From positions 1-41,843 of the forward strand of contig JAYTCK010000069.1 in assembly GCA_043736515.1 (NCBI GenBank): a stretch of 41,843 nucleotides of DNA. Reading direction: 5' to 3'. Positions 24,610-40,620 of this stretch are shown piece after piece (within the stretch, counting starts at the first letter, position 1; every line of letters starts with the position of its first letter). Made by a program: the position numbers and the translations under genes. Source of the DNA: a bacterium (GTDB taxonomy: Bacteria > Patescibacteriota > Minisyncoccia > Phycocordibacterales > UBA6899). The notes beneath the pieces are model-generated. The model did not search any database, had not been told where the DNA came from, and worked only from the letters and a program-made list of their open reading frames with translations.

Positions 24610-24653
24610 AAGTACTCTTTGGCAAAAAAGTGAGTTTGTATTATATATACAAT

Positions 24654-25325
24654 ATGTCCTCATCAAAAAAATACACACATGCAGTGATTGCGACCGATGT
24701 CGCTATTTTCACCATTGAAGAAGGGGAGCTTATGGTTCTCCTTATCGAAATGAAAAAGGCACCGTATCAGAAACACTGTGCACTTCCGGGCGGACTCGTG
24801 CGCGGAGAAGAATCATTGGAAGACGCCGCTTTTCGCCACCTCAGCGACAAGACGGGAGTGTCTCGCGTCTACCTGGAGCAGCTTGCCGCATTCGGCGAAC
24901 CAGGGCGCGATCCCTTTGGTCGCGTTGTTTCAGTCGCGTACTTCGCACTTATCCCGCTCGGTGCTCGCGAACTCAAAACAACTGAGGAGTACGGAGGAGT
25001 AGCATGGTATGGTGTCGGCAAGCTACCCAAATTGGCCTACGACCACCGTGAAATTTTGAATGCGGCACTTCTTCGTTTGCGTGCAAAACTTGAATACACA
25101 AATATTGTCTACGGGCTTTTGCCAAAAACGTTCACACTCTCAGAACTTCAGCGTGTCTACGAGATTATCCTTGCGCGTCCAATCGATAAACGCAACTTCC
25201 GCAAAAAGTATCTCTCGCTCGGACTTATTGAAGAAACAAAAGGAAAGCGTGAGGGCGGTGCTCATCGTCCTGCACAGCTCTATCAGTTCGCATCGCATAA
25301 ACCCATCGCGATCGAAGTGCTCTAG
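24654..25325 (+). CDS. nrtR: NrtR family regulator (Nudix + winged HTH; ADP-ribose-responsive repressor)
   Basis: ALPGGLV..EESLEDAA.R.LSDKTG (degenerate Nudix box), LEQL..F..PGRDP.GRVVSVAY, LAYDH, FTLSELQ.VYE and DKRNFRK..GAHRPAQLY. Confidence 0.92.
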   Translation: MSSSKKYTHAVIATDVAIFTIEEGELMVLLIEMKKAPYQKHCALPGGLVRGEESLEDAAFRHLSDKTGVSRVYLEQLAAFGEPGRDPFGRVVSVAYFALIPLGARELKTTEEYGGVAWYGVGKLPKLAYDHREILNAALLRLRAKLEYTNIVYGLLPKTFTLSELQRVYEIILARPIDKRNFRKKYLSLGLIEETKGKREGGAHRPAQLYQFASHKPIAIEVL

Positions 25326-25431: not shown

Positions 25432-25452
25432 TTAGTGTATTATACACACTTT
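25432..25452. promoter_or_regulatory. Putative NrtR operator 1
   Basis: ttagtgta-ttata-cacacttt, an imperfect match to TTAGTGTA-N5-TACACTAA. Confidence 0.6.
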
Positions 25453-25480: not shown

Positions 25481-25501
25481 TTAGTGTATATACTACACTA
25501 A
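25481..25501. promoter_or_regulatory. Putative NrtR operator 2 (perfect arms)
   Basis: ttagtgta-tatac-tacactaa upstream of the pncA-terY operon. Confidence 0.75.
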
Positions 25502-27290: not shown

Positions 27291-27365
27291 TGGTTCTTTG
27301 GACAGCAATCAACCCTTTGGGCGGCGTTATCATGCCGCCCATTTTTATTTCCGAAAGGAGTGACC

Positions 27366-28259
27366 ATGAAATTTTCAGTTGACCATCATTTCGTGATCGG
27401 TGACGATCACGCAGCACAGGGGAAGCCCTGTCAGGATCATGCGCTCTCGGCGTGCAAGGATGGCATCGCCGTCGCAGTTGTTTCGGACGGCTGCTCGTCG
27501 GGCGGCGAAACCGATATGGGTGCGCGTGTACTGACATTTGCAACGATTCGCTCGATTCTCGTCCACTTTTGCGTGACACATGCGCTTCCAGGGGTGGAGG
27601 CTGTTGAGGAAGAGCGCGCACTTATTGAAAGTACCACCATGAACATGCTCGGACTTTACCGCGACGACATGCTTGCGACATCGATTGCCACCGCGGTCAC
27701 GGACGAAGGAGGTTTTGTGTATCTTGCAGGAGACGGGGTCATTGCCGTTACCAAAAGAGACGGGAGTATCGAACTCTTGCGTTTTGATTGGGCACGCAAC
27801 ATGCCTGCGTATCCGCATTATCGTGACGATCAATTTGCCGCATTCATTGCGGCACAGGGTGGCGACAGCGAAGGAGAGCTGATGAGCCGTGAGCGTGTCA
27901 TCCGTTATGCTGATGGCACGGAAACAGAAGCCGAAATGCTCGGTATCACTCTCGCACTCGGCATTCGCGGTGTGACGCTCAACTTCGATGCACACAGCAT
28001 AGCGGAGGAGATCGCATCTATTGCAGTCTTCACCGATGGAGTGACGCAGATCGATGGTGTCGACTGGAAGGATGCCGCGTGTGAACTTCTTTCGTTTAAG
28101 AATACAACCGGAGCATTTGTGAAACGCAGGATGAATGCGGCGCTCAAGAAATATCGCAAGGAAGGAAAAAGTCCGCTTGATGATCTGGCGTATGCCGTCA
28201 TCAGCATTGATCAACCGAGAGAAGGAGAAGATTATGAGTCTCGAGAGCAAAACGCATAA
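27366..28259 (+). CDS. PP2C-like protein phosphatase (TerY-P triad type)
   Basis: IGDDH....PCQDH, VVSDGCSS, AGDG, FTDGV and DDLAYA motifs. Confidence 0.85.
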   Translation: MKFSVDHHFVIGDDHAAQGKPCQDHALSACKDGIAVAVVSDGCSSGGETDMGARVLTFATIRSILVHFCVTHALPGVEAVEEERALIESTTMNMLGLYRDDMLATSIATAVTDEGGFVYLAGDGVIAVTKRDGSIELLRFDWARNMPAYPHYRDDQFAAFIAAQGGDSEGELMSRERVIRYADGTETEAEMLGITLALGIRGVTLNFDAHSIAEEIASIAVFTDGVTQIDGVDWKDAACELLSFKNTTGAFVKRRMNAALKKYRKEGKSPLDDLAYAVISIDQPREGEDYESREQNA

Positions 28260-29976
28260 GGTTTCTTTGGAAGGACGAGGGACAATCACCCTTCGCCCGA
28301 GTGATTACATCACCTCAGGAGGCGAGGGAGTGATCTACCGCTTTGGACGCGAAGTGATCAAACTCTATAGTGACCCGCAAAAGATGCGGCGCGACGGAAT
28401 GGAGGAAAAGATCGCGCTCCTTGCGAAGCTCAAGCATGTATCTATTGTCGCTCCTTCGGGACTCGTTTGCGATGCAAAAGGTGAGCCTATCGGGTATTAC
28501 ATGCCGCACATCATCGGCGAGCCGCTCGCACGGGTCTTCACCAATGACTTCCGCACACGCGAAGGATTCACCGGGGAGTCTGCGCGAGTGCTTGCCATGC
28601 GGATGCGTGATGTTGTTCGTGCGGCGCACACATTCGGAGCACTTTTGGTTGATGCCAATGAGCTCAACTGGCTCGCCGCGCTCGACAAGAAGAAAGGCCC
28701 GACCCCCTATGTGATCGACGTTGATTCTTGGCAGGTCGGACGATTCGGCGCATCGGTCATCATGCCGTCCATCCGCGATTGGCATACTAAGGGATTCACT
28801 CAAAATTCCGACTGGTTTGCTTGGGGGATTGTGACGTTTCAAATTTTCTCTGGCATCCATCCGTACAAAGGAGTATTGCCTGGATTTGAGCGAAGTGATC
28901 TCGAAGGTCGCATGAAAGCAAGCAAGTCCGTTTTTGAAAAAGATGTCAGGCTTCCTCATGCGGTGCGGGACTTCAATACAATTCCTGCCGGACTCCTTGG
29001 GTGGTATGAAGCGGTCTTTGCCCAAGGTGAGCGCTGCGCTCCACCTGATGCGTTCGATACGCGGACAAAACAAGGAACAATTGGTTCTGTACTTCGCGTT
29101 GTGACGCAAGGCACGAAAAGCGCGCTGGTGTACGAAAAATTGCTGGGAGCATCCGGAAAAACCGTTGTGCGGATATTTCCTTCAGGGATCGCATTGTCCT
29201 CGGACGGTACACTGACGTGCCTCCGCACAAAGCGAGAGTACGTACTCTCGCTTCAGGGGAAGATTGAGGAAGTGGTACGCGTGAGCAGAGGATACCTGTG
29301 CGGAAGCATGGATGGAGGCAAAGCCGCATTTCACTTTGTCGACGAGGCAACGGGGAATGCAACGGCACTTCAACTTCCAATAAATACACAGAAACTTTTC
29401 CGGAGAGGGGAGCGCATGTTTGCGGTGAGCGATGGAAGTATCACTGAATTGAAGCTGACCATGTTCGGGAAGCCGATCCTCTCCTCCGGCACGCAGTGGG
29501 GCGTCCTTCCTAATGCGACCCAGTTCTTTGACGGCGTGGGGGTTATGGATGCGCTCGGCGCGGCATTTCTCGTACTTCCGTTCGGAGAAAAGGCGTGTGC
29601 GTCACTCCGCGTGCCCGAGCTTGATCGTGCCCGCGTCATCGAGGCAAAAGCCGGAGTGCGATATGTGGCACTCATCATCATCACCAAGAAAGGTGAATAT
29701 GAGCGATGGAGTCTGGTATTCAATAATGAGTACACATCATACACGCTTACTCGAGTAAGTGTGGATGGTCCGGAGCTTAACATGGCGACGCTTCCGAAAG
29801 GTGTCGTGGCCTATATCGACCACGACGGGGAACTCATGGTGTCGGCTCCAGTAAACGGCAACACGACAAAGGTCGAAGACAGCACCATCGCAACCGACAT
29901 GGTTCTTTGCAATTGGGACGACCGCGTACTCTATATAAAGAGTGGAGAACTCTGGAGTATAAGGATGCGTCCCTAA
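28234..29976 (+). CDS. Ser/Thr kinase-like protein (TerY-P triad type) with beta-rich C-terminal domain
   Basis: SGGEGVIY glycine loop, VIKLY, LVDANELNW catalytic loop, IDVDSWQ, SDWFAWGI and GIHPYKG. Confidence 0.85.
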   Translation: MSLESKTHKVSLEGRGTITLRPSDYITSGGEGVIYRFGREVIKLYSDPQKMRRDGMEEKIALLAKLKHVSIVAPSGLVCDAKGEPIGYYMPHIIGEPLARVFTNDFRTREGFTGESARVLAMRMRDVVRAAHTFGALLVDANELNWLAALDKKKGPTPYVIDVDSWQVGRFGASVIMPSIRDWHTKGFTQNSDWFAWGIVTFQIFSGIHPYKGVLPGFERSDLEGRMKASKSVFEKDVRLPHAVRDFNTIPAGLLGWYEAVFAQGERCAPPDAFDTRTKQGTIGSVLRVVTQGTKSALVYEKLLGASGKTVVRIFPSGIALSSDGTLTCLRTKREYVLSLQGKIEEVVRVSRGYLCGSMDGGKAAFHFVDEATGNATALQLPINTQKLFRRGERMFAVSDGSITELKLTMFGKPILSSGTQWGVLPNATQFFDGVGVMDALGAAFLVLPFGEKACASLRVPELDRARVIEAKAGVRYVALIIITKKGEYERWSLVFNNEYTSYTLTRVSVDGPELNMATLPKGVVAYIDHDGELMVSAPVNGNTTKVEDSTIATDMVLCNWDDRVLYIKSGELWSIRMRP

Positions 29977-30879: not shown

Positions 30880-30900
30880 GATATTTACATTTACGATTAG

Positions 30901-30921
30901 TTTGTGTATTATATACACTAA
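30901..30921. promoter_or_regulatory. Putative NrtR operator 3, abutting the nadD start codon
   Basis: tttgtgta-ttata-tacactaa; the last base is the A of the ATG. Confidence 0.72.
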
Positions 30922-31580
30922 TGAATCCTGAGCGAACGAAACGACTTGTCGTGACGGGGTCGGCAGTCAATCCTATTTCCCGTGCGCATCGTGATTGTGT
31001 CGAAGTATTAACGCACTCGGGCCATTTTGATCAGGTGCGTTTTTTTCCTTCAGGATTACGCAAAGACAAGCCGCACTTGATCCACTCTCTGCATCGTGTG
31101 CGCATGGCCCTGCTTGCGTTTGATGAGGAGTGGAAGAAGAGACAGCCGATTCCATTTCATGTTGACCTCCGCGAAGCTTTTCGCGAGAGCATTCCGACCA
31201 TTTATTTATTAGAGGAATTGCAGAAAGAATATCCCGATTACGAAATTGTCTTTGCAGCGGGTGTTGATGTGCTCGAACCTCGAGAATGCCTTCTCGGAAA
31301 GTCCGAGGTGCATTCATGGGATGAAGGAGAGCGGCTGATGAAAGATTGGACGTTTGCTGTCTTTCCGCGTGATGGGTATGCCGATCCCGTACTCCTCAAA
31401 GAAGAGGGGAAGCTCCCGAGTCACTTCATTGTGCTTCCGCCTACTCCCGAGGAGACACGATTGATTTCCAGTACGGAGATCAGGAAACGTGCTGGAGTAG
31501 GGCTTCCTATCGAGCACCTCGTCCACCCTAGTGTTGCGGACTATATCAGGGAACATAAGCTCTATTCCTACGATACCTAA
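30921..31580 (+). CDS. nadD: Nicotinate-nucleotide adenylyltransferase-like
   Basis: GSAVNPISRAH (divergent HxGH), HRVRMALLA, TIYLLEEL, AGVD, ISSTEIR and VADYIREHKLY. Confidence 0.82.
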   Translation: MNPERTKRLVVTGSAVNPISRAHRDCVEVLTHSGHFDQVRFFPSGLRKDKPHLIHSLHRVRMALLAFDEEWKKRQPIPFHVDLREAFRESIPTIYLLEELQKEYPDYEIVFAAGVDVLEPRECLLGKSEVHSWDEGERLMKDWTFAVFPRDGYADPVLLKEEGKLPSHFIVLPPTPEETRLISSTEIRKRAGVGLPIEHLVHPSVADYIREHKLYSYDT

Positions 31581-31592
31581 CAATCTCAATAG

Positions 31593-31621
31593 TTGACACA
31601 AAAGTATGTTTGTGCTATGCT
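31593..31621 (+). promoter_or_regulatory. Sigma70-type promoter for the DGR target gene
   Basis: TTGACA, 17-bp spacer, then TATGCT with a TG extension. Confidence 0.6.
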
Positions 31622-31694
31622 AAAATAGCGAGGAACTTCATTTTCTTGCAACTGAACCAGCAGATTCCGGTGTGTCCTTTGAAAGGAAAACGTC

Positions 31695-32360
31695 ATGAGT
31701 GCCAAAAGCATATGTGACATGGGGCTGACTCAAACCTCCGAATTCGTGGCTTCGCTCGGGAGGGCTGGTTTTACTGCCAACCTTGCGCAGCAGATCATCA
31801 CCGCTCCCGACAACGCGCTGGCCAAAACCATGTACGCTGCGCTTTCTGGTGCCACAACGCTCGACTCCCGCTTCGCGCTCGTCACAACGTTCGACATCAC
31901 CGTTCCCGCCGACTACGTGCACGCAACCCAGCTCGCCACGTTCAAGAAGGAATACGCAAAGCAGTGTTACTTCTACAACGAGGCCATCACCGATGCGAAC
32001 TTCGCCAAGGCCACGACCAAACTCACCCCCGGACGCAAGTTCAAAGTGAAAGTGTTCAAGCAAGCGGTTGCCGGAACGACGACATCCGAAGAGCTGATGG
32101 CGTTCCTTCGAAGCCAGAAAGCCATCTTCACCGGTGCACAAGGCGCCTCCCTCGTCTTCGCACAGAAGCGTCAAGAGCTCCCGAAGGGCTACTGGTACTG
32201 CTCGTTCGACGAGAAAGAAGCTCTCTTCGAAGACGCGGGCGGTTACCGCGGGGTGCCGCGCGTGAGCGCCGACTCCGATGGCGACTTCGATTTCTACCTC
32301 GGCTACTTCGAGGGGCCCTGGCATGACGGGCCCTGCCTCCTGTGCTTCTGCGACGAATAG
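31695..32360 (+). CDS. DGR target (variable) protein with C-terminal variable region
   Basis: Last ~41 codons match the downstream TR except at TR adenines; AAAGGA RBS; no signal peptide seen. Confidence 0.92.
   Translation: MSAKSICDMGLTQTSEFVASLGRAGFTANLAQQIITAPDNALAKTMYAALSGATTLDSRFALVTTFDITVPADYVHATQLATFKKEYAKQCYFYNEAITDANFAKATTKLTPGRKFKVKVFKQAVAGTTTSEELMAFLRSQKAIFTGAQGASLVFAQKRQELPKGYWYCSFDEKEALFEDAGGYRGVPRVSADSDGDFDFYLGYFEGPWHDGPCLLCFCDE
32233..32354 (+). repeat. DGR variable repeat (VR)
   Basis: 122-bp ungapped match to 32695-32816 with 17 mismatches, 16 of them opposite TR adenines. Confidence 0.95.
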
Positions 32361-32411
32361 TCCTTGAGAACTTGGGCACTCAGTTTTAAGCCTAAGATAC
32401 TTTGATCCTTC

Positions 32412-32441
32412 TTGCCCCTGCTACTCAGGGGCAATTTTTTT
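32412..32441 (+). terminator. Hairpin downstream of VR (terminator and/or DGR homing stem-loop)
   Basis: ttgcccctg-ctact-caggggcaa followed by a T run, about 50 bp after the target stop. Confidence 0.7.
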
Positions 32442-32694
32442 ACCAAAAATTTTGTTATACTATTTCTCGGATAGTAGATTATGCATGCGGCCACGGTTTC
32501 ATGCGATCGAATTCTCATGAAAGGAACTTGTGAGAATTCACCGGACACGTCTTGTGAATGGGTGCGGCCTTTTATGAAAAAAATCAAATAAGTCGGTGCG
32601 GCGTGTCGGGAGTTCTGACTCCAAATAAAATACAGGGGGTGGCCGGTGCCGCTTTCAGTGGTATTGATGGCGCGCTGTACAAAGAGCTCGGGGC

Positions 32695-32816
32695 ACGCGG
32701 ACGGTTACCACAGGGTGCCGAACGTGAACGCCAACTCCGATGGCGACTTCGATTTCAACCTCGGCAACTTCGAGAAGCCCTGGAATGACGAGAACTGCCT
32801 CCTGTGCCTCTGCAAC
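32695..32816 (+). ncRNA. DGR template repeat (TR)
   Basis: Adenine-rich counterpart of VR: 29 A, with 7 AAC codons plus AAT and AAG in the VR frame; intergenic. Confidence 0.95.
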
Positions 32817-32827
32817 TCATTTATTTT

Positions 32828-32852
32828 CTCCCACTCTACTTGTGAGTGGGAG
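32828..32852. other. Hairpin just 3' of TR, overlapping the avd stop codon
   Basis: ctcccactc-tacttgt-gagtgggag. Confidence 0.7.
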
Positions 32853-33183
32853 TTTTGTCTGCGAGACTCTTTTTCCATCCGCCGAGCATGCGCCCGACCT
32901 CATCGAGAAGTACAATGAATTTTCCATATGCGGTATGGTCTACGATCTTGTGCTCCCAGGCTATTTGCAGGAAAAACTTGAGCAGGTCGCATTTACCTGC
33001 CGCACTTCCCACAAGAGATAGTTTCTCAAATATATCGTGGGCGAATGTCGCACGAAAGAGGGTTTCCAAAAGCGCAGTAAAAGTATTGTCAATTGCAACG
33101 CCGATAGTGTAGCGGTCAACGCGCTTTATATTTTCCAGATATTCATGCCATAATTTGTACGCTTCCTTTGCGCGCACAAGCAC
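32836..33183 (-). CDS. avd: Avd-like four-helix-bundle accessory protein (5' end possibly frameshifted at the G10 tract)
   Basis: RYTIGVAID...LLE, DLLKFFLQIAWE and LDEVGRMLGGWKK are bAvd-like signatures; located between TR and RT. Confidence 0.88.
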   Translation of the reverse strand: MLVRAKEAYKLWHEYLENIKRVDRYTIGVAIDNTFTALLETLFRATFAHDIFEKLSLVGSAAGKCDLLKFFLQIAWEHKIVDHTAYGKFIVLLDEVGRMLGGWKKSLADKTPTHK

Positions 33184-33199
33184 AAGCGGGACTTGAGCT

Positions 33200-33209
33200 G
33201 GGGGGGGGG
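33200..33209. repeat. G10 homopolymer at the avd/RT junction
   Basis: gagct-gggggggggg-tgac. Confidence 0.9.
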
Positions 33210-34198
33210 TGACTTATTGGTGCATGCTGACTCATACGTACGATTCTCTCATTTCCATTGAAAATCTCCTAGTGACGTGGGAGCGATTTTTACGCGGAAA
33301 GTGTCACCGAAAAGACATCATAAATTTTCAGGGTACGTTGGCGGATAATATCGTGACCCTCCAACGTGACCTTGCCACTCGCACTTACGCACATGGCGTA
33401 TATTTGGCGTTTAACATCTCAGACCCAAAGCCGCGTAATATTCATAAGGCAAACGTTAGGGACAGATTGCTTCATCATCTTATTTATAAAGAACTCTATG
33501 TGTATTTCCACCAGCGATTTATTTACGATTCCTACTCGTGCCGTCCCGACAAAGGAACACATCGCGCCCTTGACCGTTTTCGGTTATTTGCTCGTGGTGT
33601 GTCAAAAAATAATACGCGGACATGCTTTGTGCTCAAGTGTGACGTGAAAAAGTTCTTTGCAAGCATAGACCATGAAATACTCCGCAACATACTTGCACGA
33701 CATATTGCAGATGCAGAATTGCGCAGTCTTATCGAGGCTGTTGTTTCAAGTTTTTCAAGTACTGCGCCAAGCAAAGGTCTTCCGCTCGGTAATTTAACAT
33801 CGCAGCTTCTTGTGAATGTGTACATGCACGAATTTGATATGTATATGAAACAAGCACTTCGCGTGAAACACTATATTCGCTATGCAGATGACTTTGTGAT
33901 TTTTTCAGAAGATAAAGGTTATCTTGAAAATCTTTTACTCTCGATAGATACATTTTTGAGCGAAAAATTAAAACTCACACTTCATCCGGACAAGGTATAT
34001 ATCAAAACGTATGCTTCGGGCGTCGACTTTTTAGGCTGGGTACACTTTCCTCATCATCGACAAATTCGCACCGCAACAAAACGAAAAATCGTGAAAGCAT
34101 TGAAGGGCTATCCAAAGCGAGAAACAGTGAGTTCGCATAGAGGGCTGCTTGCTCATGGGGACACATTTGGGTTAAGGAAGCGCTTGGGGGTGGAGTAG
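33209..34198 (+). CDS. DGR-type reverse transcriptase (start GTG 33209 or ATG 33224)
   Basis: PKPRNI, RDRLLHH, DSYSCRPDKGTH, KCDVKKFFASIDH, GLPLGNLTSQ, YIRYADDFVI and VDFLGW; compact, with no maturase or endonuclease tail. Confidence 0.95.
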   Translation: MTYWCMLTHTYDSLISIENLLVTWERFLRGKCHRKDIINFQGTLADNIVTLQRDLATRTYAHGVYLAFNISDPKPRNIHKANVRDRLLHHLIYKELYVYFHQRFIYDSYSCRPDKGTHRALDRFRLFARGVSKNNTRTCFVLKCDVKKFFASIDHEILRNILARHIADAELRSLIEAVVSSFSSTAPSKGLPLGNLTSQLLVNVYMHEFDMYMKQALRVKHYIRYADDFVIFSEDKGYLENLLLSIDTFLSEKLKLTLHPDKVYIKTYASGVDFLGWVHFPHHRQIRTATKRKIVKALKGYPKRETVSSHRGLLAHGDTFGLRKRLGVE

Positions 34199-34218
34199 CG
34201 AATTACCCACCCAAGGAC

Positions 34219-34253
34219 TTGACGGGAAATACATAGTGTATATAATACACTAA
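34219..34253 (+). promoter_or_regulatory. pncB promoter with overlapping putative NrtR operator 4
   Basis: TTGACG, 16-bp spacer, TATAAT; operator atagtgta-tataa-tacactaa (34233-34253) covers the -10 box. Confidence 0.75.
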
Positions 34254-34362
34254 GATAGCACTCTGTTCTCTGATATCTACTACAAATAGTTGACAAAACA
34301 AGAAAAGCATGTAGTTTTGTGATAGATGTTTCATTGTTTTCAAAACCAACAGGAGTAATCCC

Positions 34363-35670
34363 ATGACTGATTTTGTGCGTCACACGATGCGTCCGGAGAA
34401 GAACGACTGGATCCATCGCTCACCCTGCGATATCGATTTTTACAAGTACACGATGGGGTATTACATCTATACGTATTTTCCGGATACGGAAGTTACGTTT
34501 GAACTCATCGTGCGCGACAAGACAATCCCTATTGCAGATGTGATCGACGAGCGCGAACTCTGTGAACAACTTGAACACGCACGGCAGTGCCGTTACGATT
34601 TCACCACGCTGTCATGGCTCGGTGGAATGCGCGTATACGGTGCGAACATGTTCTCGAATGAATACGTGTACGACTTCTTGGAAAAGTACCGGCTTCCTGA
34701 GTTCCGATTGGAGCGCAAGGGAAGCGGATTCAATATCACATTTCGCGGGACGTGGAAACTTGCGACCTTCTGGGAGACGATCGCGCTTTCCGTTGTAAAC
34801 GAGCTCTACTATCGCTCGCTCATGCGCCGCATGTCCGAAACAGAAGTCGATATTTTGTTTGCTCGCGCGAAAGCAAAACTGTGGGACAAGCTGCAGCGAC
34901 TCAAAGCATATCCCGACCTGAAGTTCATGGGTTTCGAAACACGCCGCAGGTTCAGTTTCAGGTGGCAACACTTCGAGGCGCAATTATGCAAACAGGAAAT
35001 GGGCGCACAGTACCTCGGTGTCTCGAACACGTGGATCGCCTTCAACCAAAGCATCATCCCTATGGGTACCAATGCGCACGAACTACCTATGGTTGAAGTC
35101 GCACTTGCGAATACGTCCGAGGAAAAACGAAGAGCTCAGTACGATGTGTGTGCAAAATGGGAAAAGCTTTATGGCGTCGGTCTACGTATTCTCCTTCCTG
35201 ATGCCTTCGGTACGCCGCAGTTTCTTCTCGGCGCACCAGAGCGGCTCGCACATGAATGGAAGGGTTTACGGCAGGACTCAGGGTGTCCGATAGAGATCGG
35301 CGAGCTCTACATTGCGTGGCTCGAGTCTCATCACATCGACCCCTGCACGAAACTCCTGATCTTCTCTGACGGACTTGACGTCGACGACATGATCAAATTG
35401 CATCTTCATTTCAATGGGCGCATCAATGTTTCCTTCGGGTGGGGTACGCTTTTGGGAAATGATTTCCGCGACTGCTATCCGCGCGAGGGAGAAATCGCAG
35501 CGCTGTTCCGTCCAATCTCGATGGCATGCAAGGTCGTCGAAGCCAATGGCCGTCCTGTTGTGAAATTCTCGGACACAAAAGGTAAAGTGACCGGCGACCC
35601 CGTCGTCGCAGAGGAGTATCGCAAGATCTTCGGCGTTGGTAATGCTGTGGAGCGTGCGATCATCGTCTGA
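34363..35670 (+). CDS. pncB: Nicotinate phosphoribosyltransferase
   Basis: DIDFYKYTM, WETIALS, FETRRRFS, GTNAHE, RQDSG, IFSDGL, SFGWGT and VKFSD motifs. Confidence 0.93.
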   Translation: MTDFVRHTMRPEKNDWIHRSPCDIDFYKYTMGYYIYTYFPDTEVTFELIVRDKTIPIADVIDERELCEQLEHARQCRYDFTTLSWLGGMRVYGANMFSNEYVYDFLEKYRLPEFRLERKGSGFNITFRGTWKLATFWETIALSVVNELYYRSLMRRMSETEVDILFARAKAKLWDKLQRLKAYPDLKFMGFETRRRFSFRWQHFEAQLCKQEMGAQYLGVSNTWIAFNQSIIPMGTNAHELPMVEVALANTSEEKRRAQYDVCAKWEKLYGVGLRILLPDAFGTPQFLLGAPERLAHEWKGLRQDSGCPIEIGELYIAWLESHHIDPCTKLLIFSDGLDVDDMIKLHLHFNGRINVSFGWGTLLGNDFRDCYPREGEIAALFRPISMACKVVEANGRPVVKFSDTKGKVTGDPVVAEEYRKIFGVGNAVERAIIV

Positions 35671-39504: not shown

Positions 39505-40503
39505 TCATGCAATATCAAGCGCGTCGCAGAGTTTATTCGCCAGGAGTCTTGCTTCTTCCGAAGCAAGACAGCCGGTGATCCATTCATGCGGAATTGCTAC
39601 TGTGCCATAGCGAAGGCCCAACAGTCCGCCGACTATGCTCGCATTTGTATCAGTATCGCCGCCCGCATTCACTGCGGAAAGTACCCCTTCTTTGAAAGAG
39701 CCCGCCCGCTGACATACTGAAATTACAAAGGGTGCAGTCTCCATTGCGGTAAACCGCGAGGGCAAGAACTCGACGTTCGGAGAGATCGTTGAAAGACAGT
39801 GTTTGATCTCTGCGGCAAAGAGCATCTTGTCCTTCTTCGGAAGGTCGATCATACGCTGAAGATAGTCAAGACTCATTTGGATGAGATGAGCGACAAACTT
39901 CGGAGTAAATTTTTCATAATGGCACTCCTCAAGCGTCGCATATGCAAAGACGGTATACGCGAGAACAAGCGAGCGCGGATCGCGGTGGGTCACGCGGCTC
40001 GACATGTGAAGGAGTGAAATTCCCTGCTGCTCACCTTTGGCAATACCCAAAATCGCAATAGGCAACAATTTCATAATGGTGCCGTTCCCAGACTTTTTTT
40101 GCTCGTCTGCTTCGTGGTGCGCATAAAGTGGCGCGGGTTCCGTGGCTCCATTTTTCCACCGCATCATGCTTTCGAGCGTCATTTTTCCAAAACCAAACGG
40201 TGAGGTGTGAAGTGCGTGGAGGTGAGTATCGATACACGTGCGAAGCGACACACCGCTTGGCTCCTTAATAATCGCTTCAGCCATCGCGGCTGTTAGTGCC
40301 CAATCATCGGTGGTAGCGCCCCGTGTAAGCCCGTGTGCCCAACTATGTTTATGGAGGGCGGCAGGAAGATAACCCGTAACCCCATTTGGCCCCAGTATTT
40401 CTCGGATCTTTGCCCTCGTCATGGTTTCGACAGGTGCACCCAATGCGTCACCAATAGCAACACCAAGATGGGCTGCAATAACCTGATCGCGTGTAATTTT
40501 CAC
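39505..40503 (-). CDS. ADP-ribosylglycohydrolase (DraG/ARH family); start GTG 40503 inferred
   Basis: GVAIGDALGAPVE, TTDDW, GNGTIMK, THRDP and GGDTDTNASIVGGLLG motifs. Confidence 0.92.
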   Translation of the reverse strand: MKITRDQVIAAHLGVAIGDALGAPVETMTRAKIREILGPNGVTGYLPAALHKHSWAHGLTRGATTDDWALTAAMAEAIIKEPSGVSLRTCIDTHLHALHTSPFGFGKMTLESMMRWKNGATEPAPLYAHHEADEQKKSGNGTIMKLLPIAILGIAKGEQQGISLLHMSSRVTHRDPRSLVLAYTVFAYATLEECHYEKFTPKFVAHLIQMSLDYLQRMIDLPKKDKMLFAAEIKHCLSTISPNVEFLPSRFTAMETAPFVISVCQRAGSFKEGVLSAVNAGGDTDTNASIVGGLLGLRYGTVAIPHEWITGCLASEEARLLANKLCDALDIA

Positions 40504-40620
40504 AAATTTTCCTAGGAGTGAATGATCTTCCTCACTTGGTTTATCACGAATATGAATTAATGCAATAAAATAAAAAATCCGCAGCAAGTGCGGATTATTC
40601 CCGAAGAAGGCAATGAACTG

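Follow-up and report, generated by a model that had tools for sequence, protein, structure and literature searches.

The stretch of DNA examined here, referred to below as the window, is the entire 41,843-bp contig C69 (JAYTCK010000069.1) of a Patescibacteria genome assembly of 1.28 Mb (72 contigs, 46.8% GC). Between a nadD-like gene and pncB, which belong to its nicotinamide adenine dinucleotide (NAD) salvage island, it carries the components of a diversity-generating retroelement (DGR). A target gene (221 aa, 31695-32360, plus strand) contains the variable repeat (VR, 32233-32354) at its 3' end, and the corresponding template repeat (TR, 32695-32816, plus strand) is intergenic. Beyond the TR are found avd (accessory variability determinant, 115 aa, 32836-33183, minus strand) and a reverse transcriptase (RT) gene (329 aa, 33209-34198, plus strand) whose start is uncertain, being either the GTG at 33209 or the ATG at 33226. 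The VR-bearing target, the TR, Avd and a DGR-type RT are thus all present and intact, which upholds the DGR call made in a first-pass annotation of this sequence. We read the segment 31581-34213 as a complete and functional DGR of the Candidate Phyla Radiation (CPR) clade, forming a discrete insertion between nadD and the operator/promoter of pncB, with a probability of about 0.92.

Aligned to each other, the VR and the TR match over 122 nt without gaps and differ at 17 positions, 16 of which are TR adenines. Both totals agree with the first-pass annotation; the changes at adenines are A>G at 10, A>C at 4 and A>T at 2 positions. With 29 of the 122 nt being adenines, 16 or more of 17 mismatches would fall on them with a binomial probability of 1.4e-9. 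The VR ends 6 nt upstream of the stop codon of the target open reading frame (ORF), and in this frame the 29 TR adenines, as had been noted before, all occupy codon positions 1 (10 adenines) and 2 (19 adenines) and none occupies position 3. It had also been claimed that this placement limits stop codons; stop codons are reduced but not excluded, because the TR codon AAG at target residue 207 can become TAG by an adenine change. The protein-level ceiling of VR variants is 1.05e17 combinations, residue 220 included. The only mismatch outside TR adenines is a C in the TR facing a T in the VR at 32346, which the first-pass annotation took for a difference between the IMH and IMH* sequences expected at the 3' end of the repeats. 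That interpretation is consistent with 32346, and the A/G mismatch at 32352 can be added to it, which would make two such differences and not one. These positions hit F218 (TTC in the VR, CTC in the TR) and D220 (AAC in the TR), and since both residues are invariant in 40 of 40 aligned homologues, D220 in spite of its TR codon, the two mismatches are better explained by fixed IMH*/IMH-like end differences than by diversification. Fifteen mismatches are then left in the diversified stretch, and the last ~21 nt of the VR (32334-32354) are consistent with an IMH-like non-diversified end. No third copy of the TR or extra VR was found in the whole 72-contig assembly when adenines were treated as wildcards and up to 8 other mismatches were allowed.

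The RT matches RVT_1 (3e-25), and its best match among solved structures is 8ub7_A (328 aa, E 2.8e-37), compared with E 6.8e-18 for a group II intron RT (7uim_D) and E 1.2e-17 for a retron-type RT. Group II intron and retron RTs, a grouping with which would speak against a DGR according to the first-pass annotation, match far less well in this comparison. The title of the 8ub7_A entry is only "Reverse transcriptase"; we took it to be the RT of the Bordetella phage DGR (bRT) because its residue numbering reproduces Arg74, Ile181 and Gln187, the bRT positions given in PMC7826257. According to the same article, DGR RTs carry the signature [I/V/L]GxxxSQ, as opposed to QGxxxSP in group II and retroviral RTs. 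In the alignment of the window RT to bRT, R76 stands opposite R74 and L193-GNLT-SQ199 opposite I181-Q187, and a YADD motif is present at Y225; the GNLTSQ and YADD motifs reported by the first-pass annotation are thus recovered, the former as LGNLTSQ. NCBIfam contains no model for DGR RTs. The models of this collection that respond to the window RT all do so under their cut-offs, namely the group II RT/maturase TIGR04416 (134 bits, cut-off 300), the retron St85 family NF038233 (64.5 bits, cut-off 235) and the Drt families (27-77 bits, cut-offs 200-550). No En domain was found in the RT, and a maturase domain is unsupported, the TIGR04416 match stopping at residue 299. Over the whole window, no Rfam 15 family, group II intron and retron RNAs included, reaches its gathering threshold, from which we conclude that no such RNA accompanies the RT at this locus. 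A phage collection contains 173 records that match the RT with identities of 31-36%, and in 105 of these the match extends over at least 80% of the RT length. Bordetella phages, ANMV-1, Vibrio phage VP585 and crAss-like phages, which we take to be DGR carriers, are among them. The product of avd matches the Pfam family PF22296 bAvd at 41.5 bits (cut-off 40, E 2.1e-10). The first-pass annotation was thus right about the presence of an Avd-like gene next to the RT, but not about an order in which the one simply precedes the other, since avd is encoded on the minus strand and diverges from the RT gene.

We then compared the window with public sequencing runs, which were examined as assembled contigs and therefore drop rare variants. 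The contig of runs X2 and X3 that covers 30900-32680 shows two differences from the window, none in the VR. Run X5, which comes from a different study, provides a 368-nt contig (31929-32296, depth 5.4) with 13 differences. Eight of the nine differences that could be positioned lie in the VR (32239, 32245, 32248, 32250, 32259, 32260, 32265 and 32266), and all eight fall on TR-adenine sites at codon positions 1-2. As 16 of the 64 VR positions covered by this contig are adenine sites, the hypergeometric probability of finding 8 of 8 there is 2.9e-6. Elsewhere in the element X5 is nearly identical to the window, with 3 differences in 491 nt over the contig 32333-32823, which includes the TR, and 8 in 1100 nt over the contig 33215-34314, which spans the RT and the next 116 nt. 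Coverage of this region is fragmentary in runs X4 and X5, and in X5 a gap at 32297-32332 makes that part of the VR uninformative. The same cassette with the same right junction and a rewritten VR implies at least one homing event since the populations split. Such a pattern is what mutagenic homing predicts, and it supports ongoing adenine-specific diversification of the VR, as judged from these contigs, in agreement with the recent activity proposed in the first-pass annotation.

The target protein matches no Pfam or NCBIfam family. It has at least 319 homologues of ~220 aa, all devoid of annotation, and those that are named come from Patescibacteria; likewise, the protein atlas returned only unnamed Minisyncoccota clusters. 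In an alignment of 40 homologues, the highest entropies (2.8-3.5 bits) are reached at residues 184, 189, 191, 193, 199, 201, 204, 207, 210 and 213, and all of these except 184 and 199 correspond to TR codons AAC, AAT or AAG. The invariant residues G183, V187, G196, L202, W209, L216 and F218 have codons without adenine. This column pattern is as expected for a family that would be diversified by adenine mutagenesis on a fixed scaffold. The N-terminal ~50 residues vary from one subgroup of homologues to another, so the protein may consist of a modular head placed on a conserved variable domain. An AlphaFold (AF2) model computed from the 40-homologue alignment (pLDDT 88.8, pTM 0.73) shows three N-terminal helices at residues 11-51, followed by an alpha/beta domain from residue ~55 to the C-terminus. 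Among 48,161 representative chains compared with the model in a wide VIA-align search, 20 reached a Z of at least 5, the best one having Z 6.4 (rmsd 3.2, 101 residues aligned). Nearly all of the top 50 matches are C-type-lectin-like and span residues ~55/64-221, and they include formylglycine-enzyme-type folds and the C-terminal domain of Legionella Lcl. The DGR target proteins Mtd (1yu0) and TvpA (2y3c_A) both gave Z 4.8, with rmsd 3.6 over 113 residues and rmsd 4.3 over 135 residues, respectively. Because the list of matches is homogeneous, we accept a C-type-lectin-like fold for the modelled domain, with the caveat that the Z scores are middling. By eye, neither a signal peptide nor a hydrophobic segment was seen in the protein. 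The gene is preceded by a promoter-like site (TTGACA, 17 nt, TATGCT with a TG; 31593-31621, plus strand; only 10 of 12 consensus positions matched) that begins 12 nt past the nadD stop, and it is followed, 58 nt beyond the VR, by a hairpin resembling an intrinsic terminator (9 bp, 6 of them GC, then T7; 32412-32441, plus strand).

The gene order of the element, target-VR, TR on the plus strand, avd on the minus strand and RT on the plus strand, corresponds to architecture B3, TR-(avd)-RT, in which avd is encoded on the reverse strand and which accounts for 90% of CPR DGRs in Wu et al. 2018 (PMC5758913). The targets of CPR clade-2 DGRs typically lack transmembrane (TM) or recognisable domains, according to Roux et al. 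2021 (PMC8144416). Since its gene order, its RT clade and its small domain-less target agree with what these two sources state, the window element is a standard CPR DGR. It resembles the elements described there in its chromosomal site, its small target without known or TM domain and its C-terminal VR, and it shows no difference in kind; what is specific to the window is the nadD|pncB site and the target subfamily, which was found in 14 of 81 related DGR loci. Relatives of the RT occur in 14 of 40 related genomes, with a divergent avd beside the RT in 11 of their 15 loci, and a divergent avd is found in 73 of the 81 related DGR loci. When one genome per species was scanned for the RT, at least 591 of 600 candidate stretches were confirmed, and the best 80 of them are nearly all titled as Patescibacteria metagenome-assembled genomes (MAGs). 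With RT relatives in hundreds of Patescibacteria MAGs, the earlier statement that DGRs are abundant in CPR holds. Two RT relatives (L088 and L091) lie in MAGs titled Gammaproteobacteria and Bacteroidota, all other titled MAGs being Patescibacteria, and these could result from a binning error or from transfer. The related cassette closest to the window one, in genome G018 (contig C19; locus L011 839-1816, minus strand), has an RT 81% identical, an Avd 91% identical and nearly the same TR; it carries an in-frame TAG in its RT gene and an epimerase-like ORF after it. In another related cassette (locus L047, 2611-4867 and 5406-5865), a second target-like copy with its own VR-like stretch appears to lie downstream of the RT, which suggests a DGR with two targets.

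The genome contains a second complete DGR with the same layout on contig C13 (~27315-29784; locus L119 5316-7785). It comprises an RT gene (27315-28346, minus strand) whose product is 60% identical to the window RT, avd on the plus strand, a TR (28722-28862, minus strand), a VR (29198-29338, minus strand) and a 198-aa target. This element separates a pilB/GspE-like ATPase gene from a pilC/GspF-like gene. In each of the 3 relatives with an orthologous pilB, the pair is contiguous.

The cassette of the window spans ~2.6 kb (31581-34213), from the stop codon of nadD to the promoter of pncB, and disrupts neither. On its left is the gene of the nadD-like nicotinate-nucleotide adenylyltransferase (30921-31580, plus strand; Pfam CTP_transf_like, 1.8e-06), and on its right the pncB gene for nicotinate phosphoribosyltransferase (34363-35670, plus strand; NAPRTase, 7.7e-41). 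The pncB promoter (TTGACG, 16 nt, TATAAT; 34219-34252, plus strand) begins 20 nt past the RT stop and overlaps the palindrome TAGTGTA-N5-TACACTA. This palindrome occurs four times in the window (25433-25451, 25482-25500, 30902-30920 and 34234-34252) for 0.02 occurrences expected. It is found after the gene of an NrtR-type regulator (24630-25322; Nudix and NrtR winged-helix domains by domain match), before nadD, where 30902-30920 is an NrtR-like operator by palindrome match, and before pncB, so that nadD and pncB each retain a candidate operator of their own. These sites point to a candidate NrtR regulon of an NAD-salvage island, comprising pncA-like, nadD, pncB and nadE genes and an ADP-ribosylglycohydrolase gene (39508-40587).

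We also looked for the flanking genes in relatives. The pncB gene is present in 4 of 40 relatives, and nadD was found in three (G007, G012 and G021) of the five genomes queried, namely the four with pncB and G018. In all three, nadD (54-59% identical to the window nadD) lies upstream of pncB on the same strand, at 155, 252 and 315 nt, without a cassette, and the spacers share with the window the pncB promoter and the palindrome. The first-pass annotation had proposed to check whether relatives that lack the cassette have nadD next to pncB, and this is so wherever both genes were found. That the element separates the two genes, as it had stated, is correct, but the rarity it implied for the element is not, this being a standard CPR DGR. 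As nadD, pncB, pncA or nadE lie near none of the 81 related DGR loci, the NAD context looks like an incidental insertion site, and nothing evident ties the function of the cassette to NAD metabolism. Related cassettes resemble the window at the DNA level (65-80%) from ~31842-31912 to ~34158-34179 and no further. A 14-nt direct repeat at 31588 and 34285 (beginning AATAGTTGACA) was considered as a target-site duplication and rejected. Both copies correspond to -35 promoter regions, and we attribute the repeat to chance or promoter similarity because the second copy exists in cassette-free relatives and equally good short repeats occur. No recombinase gene is present within this cassette or the second DGR cassette of the genome. 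From these gene comparisons, we read both cassettes as probable gains of a compact module. The flanks of the element in run X5 are more distant from the window than the element itself, with 20 differences in 387 nt in the nadD contig (30900-31286) and 20 in 336 nt in the pncB contig (35363-35698), that is 5-6%, against less than 1% in the contigs over the cassette outside the VR (within 31764-34314). Either two strains are mixed in the X5 sample or, compared with its flanks, the cassette is younger or more mobile.

The TR appears to be embedded in a structured RNA, all elements of which are on the plus strand. An extended -10 promoter-like element (TG-n-TATACT, 32453-32461), read from the sequence, precedes it, and hexamers of the TATACT/TATAAT/TACAAT type stand at the matching position in 11 of 13 aligned cassettes, the other two rows starting downstream. 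Related cassettes show the same succession of a hairpin with a T-run, equivalent to the terminator of the target gene, a -10-type hexamer and ~200 conserved nt up to the TR. In the window the conserved ~200 nt correspond to a structured 5' domain (32483-32680) which, in the alignment fold, consists of helix H1 (32483-32504), helices H2-H4 (32515-32577) and helix P1 (32596-32607 with 32669-32680), the latter enclosing hairpin A, an invariant AAUAAAAUACA linker and hairpin B (32635-32656). The end of P1 is 14 nt away from the start of the TR/VR homology. The fold of the 13-cassette alignment contains 54 pairs in nine helices, 36 of which change on both sides. Paired cells amount to 95.7%, against 84.1% in shuffled alignments (none of 500 attains 95.7%) and 37-48% once the pairing partners are slid by 1-3 columns, a control in which the structure is favoured because it was derived from the alignment used to test it. 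For the 3' half of the domain, an 11-sequence alignment with a hand-written structure gave 97% of paired cells, with 15 of 21 pairs changing on both sides. A covariance model of this half (R1) matched 72 times in 71 of 95 sources, without exception on the RT strand and ~520-650 nt upstream of the RT match; one of these matches is in the second DGR of the genome (E 0.004). In the alignment fitted to R1, 94.2% of cells pair versus 66.4% after shuffling, such fitted alignments leaning to the model. The frequent G-U pairs indicate that the RNA is read from the RT strand. The region 32380-33260 gave only chance-level matches to Rfam at E up to 10, for example RT-9 with 17.3 bits against 46.1, and no description of this 5' domain was found in the literature searched, which consisted of main articles. 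Only this domain and the two clean cassette insertions may extend what has been published.

On the other side of the TR, 11 nt past its end, a 9-bp stem-loop followed by UUUU (32828-32856, plus strand) overlaps the 3' coding end of avd. By analogy, it is a candidate Avd-binding site and/or terminator of the TR RNA. A pattern fixing only the outer arms of this stem-loop is found in 37 of 69 related loci with enough upstream sequence, and its four free inner pairs are formed in 125 of 148 cells, where shuffles average 71.7 and never exceed 92. Such a stem-loop is already a known feature: a preprint on the Bordetella element (10.1101/2023.10.23.563531) predicts that 207 of 278 DGRs, CPR included, have an Avd-binding stem-loop immediately 3' of the TR, usually with 9 bp. 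We also considered a stop duplex like that of Bordetella, formed by 32683-32694 and 32856-32870 and suggested by the single-sequence fold (z only -1.72), and rejected it because related cassettes do not keep the pairing.

Two other observations concern this region. The contigs of runs X2 and X3 break at 32651-32680, and a 76-nt contig of depth 5-6 (11-12 for the main path) runs on from 32680, the exact 3' end of helix P1, into 46 unrelated letters with a tandem 13-mer. A 14-nt motif of this alternative path is absent from the assembly, and the path could be an assembly artefact. In addition, the divergent starts of avd and RT are separated by a 25-nt spacer containing a G10 homopolymer (33200-33209), the only G/C homopolymer of at least 8 nt in the window, in which the contigs of X2 and X3 have a G>A change at 33206. 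This run may influence the expression of avd or RT. A promoter-like site with a weak consensus match lies within the antisense avd (33125-33154), and the RT is probably transcribed separately.

The element can be compared with several characterized systems. The DGR of Bordetella phage BPP-1 (mtd-avd-TR-brt) also directs adenine-dependent transfer from TR to VR into the C-terminus of a C-type-lectin fold with AAY-type codons, and it shares with the window the [I/V/L]GxxxSQ motif and the R74 equivalent of the RT, the Avd partner and the stem-loop just 3' of the TR. In contrast to BPP-1, avd of the window is divergent and downstream of the TR, which means that the 3' end of avd cannot supply the RNA ahead of the TR, a place occupied by a dedicated ~200-nt structured domain. 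The stem-loop of the window, which has a U-tract behind it, overlaps the 3' coding end of the antisense avd, the candidate duplex between upstream and downstream RNA is not conserved, and the element is cellular rather than phage-borne, its RT being only ~31-36% identical to phage RTs. TvpA of Treponema denticola, described as a surface lipoprotein, has a similar C-terminal variable domain of the C-type-lectin type, whereas the target of the window is much smaller and no signal peptide was seen in it by eye. Finally, group II intron RTs share the RT fold and palm motifs, but the window has no intron RNA according to Rfam, no En domain was found in its RT, and its motif is LGxxxSQ and not QGxxxSP.

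Several points weigh against a functional CPR-clade DGR as described above. The activity of the element is judged from assembled contigs, and the difference between samples is carried by one contig of depth 5.4 in which 9 of 13 differences were positioned. Avd scores 50.5 bits (E 2e-13) with the NCBIfam model NF033474 DivGenRetAVD, which is under the cut-off of 80. The structure matches of the target are middling (Z at most 6.4), and Foldseek against the Protein Data Bank (PDB) returned nothing at E of 0.001 or below, only weak hits at E 0.15 or worse that are mostly C-type lectins. The promoter, both ends of the RNA and the functions of its domains are deduced from sequence; if the stem-loop and U-tract terminate the RNA, most of the Bordetella-type 140-nt spacer would be missing and priming may differ. 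The choice between cassette gain and loss likewise comes from gene comparison. Lastly, the VR of the window is identical in runs X2 and X3, which belong to the same study as the probable source, so the consensus is stable there. This identity would also fit a fossil, that is, a once-active DGR whose target is no longer diversified and whose TR/VR differences are old, as would the TR 3'-end differences at 32346 and 32352 that are absent from the VR and the in-frame TAG in the closest RT (G018:C19, 81%), which shows that decay happens in the lineage. We nevertheless consider a fossil very unlikely, since the target, avd and RT ORFs are all intact, the RT retains its catalytic and DGR-signature residues, and X5 differs at eight VR sites, all of them TR adenines, against less than 1% over the TR region and the RT.

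The cassette could also be ancestral at nadD|pncB and have been deleted in relatives. Genome reduction is common in Patescibacteria, and both flanking genes were found in three relatives only. However, a short spacer with the same pncB promoter and operator is present in all three, NAD genes adjoin none of the 81 related DGR loci, related cassettes occupy other contexts, such as the one with an epimerase-like ORF after the RT in G018:C19, and the second cassette likewise splits pilB and pilC, which are contiguous in 3 of 3 orthologous loci. An ancestral cassette thus appears unlikely. As for the nature of the RT itself, it might derive from a group II intron, a retron or a defence system, with the repeat pair being an unrelated duplication, given that its best NCBIfam hit, although below threshold, is a group II RT/maturase (134 bits) in a collection without a DGR-RT model. 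This hit is far under its cut-off of 300 and stops at residue 299, the retron St85 and Drt scores are under their cut-offs too, the RT has only 329 aa with no En domain found, and nothing in the window reaches an Rfam gathering threshold. A DGR, on the other hand, accounts for the signature motif, for the Avd gene next to the RT and for repeat differences concentrated on adenines (P = 1.4e-9), and we give practically no credit to another type of retroelement.

If the window element works as a DGR, the following steps can be proposed. The TR would be transcribed in a separate non-coding RNA (ncRNA) of ~390 nt, starting from its own extended -10 element (~32453-32461) and comprising the 5' domain, the TR and the stem-loop with its U-tract. 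The RT-Avd complex would bind this RNA, the stem-loop just 3' of the TR being the likely Avd site, and copy the TR to cDNA with misincorporation opposite template adenines. Replacement of the VR by this cDNA would recode up to ~20 surface codons of the C-type-lectin-like domain of the target, while the non-adenine scaffold and the last ~20 nt of the VR would remain fixed. The 5' domain may dock the RT and/or stop cDNA synthesis, thereby setting the 5' limit of mutagenesis. A wider proposal, which we put forward as tentative and somewhat doubtful when taken as a whole, is that the TR is the core of an independent ~390-nt ncRNA gene, that its 5' domain represents an undescribed RNA family and that the cassettes are mobile modules. 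The 5' domain would then take the docking and reverse-transcription-stop role of the Bordetella avd:spacer duplex, and the cassettes of 2.6-4 kb would be self-contained, because two of them split contiguous gene pairs in one genome without a recombinase.

Altogether, the window provides one more well-delimited and apparently active example of a DGR class already abundant in Patescibacteria, and it leaves the picture of that class unchanged. The target family is large (at least 319 members), unannotated and confidently modelled, which makes it a concrete candidate when asking what CPR cells diversify. Clean boundaries on both sides at two sites in one genome make cassette gain and loss tractable. 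As the TR appears to lie in a conserved and covarying RNA, the 5' domain may be relevant to how cDNA synthesis is primed or stopped in elements whose avd is on the reverse strand.

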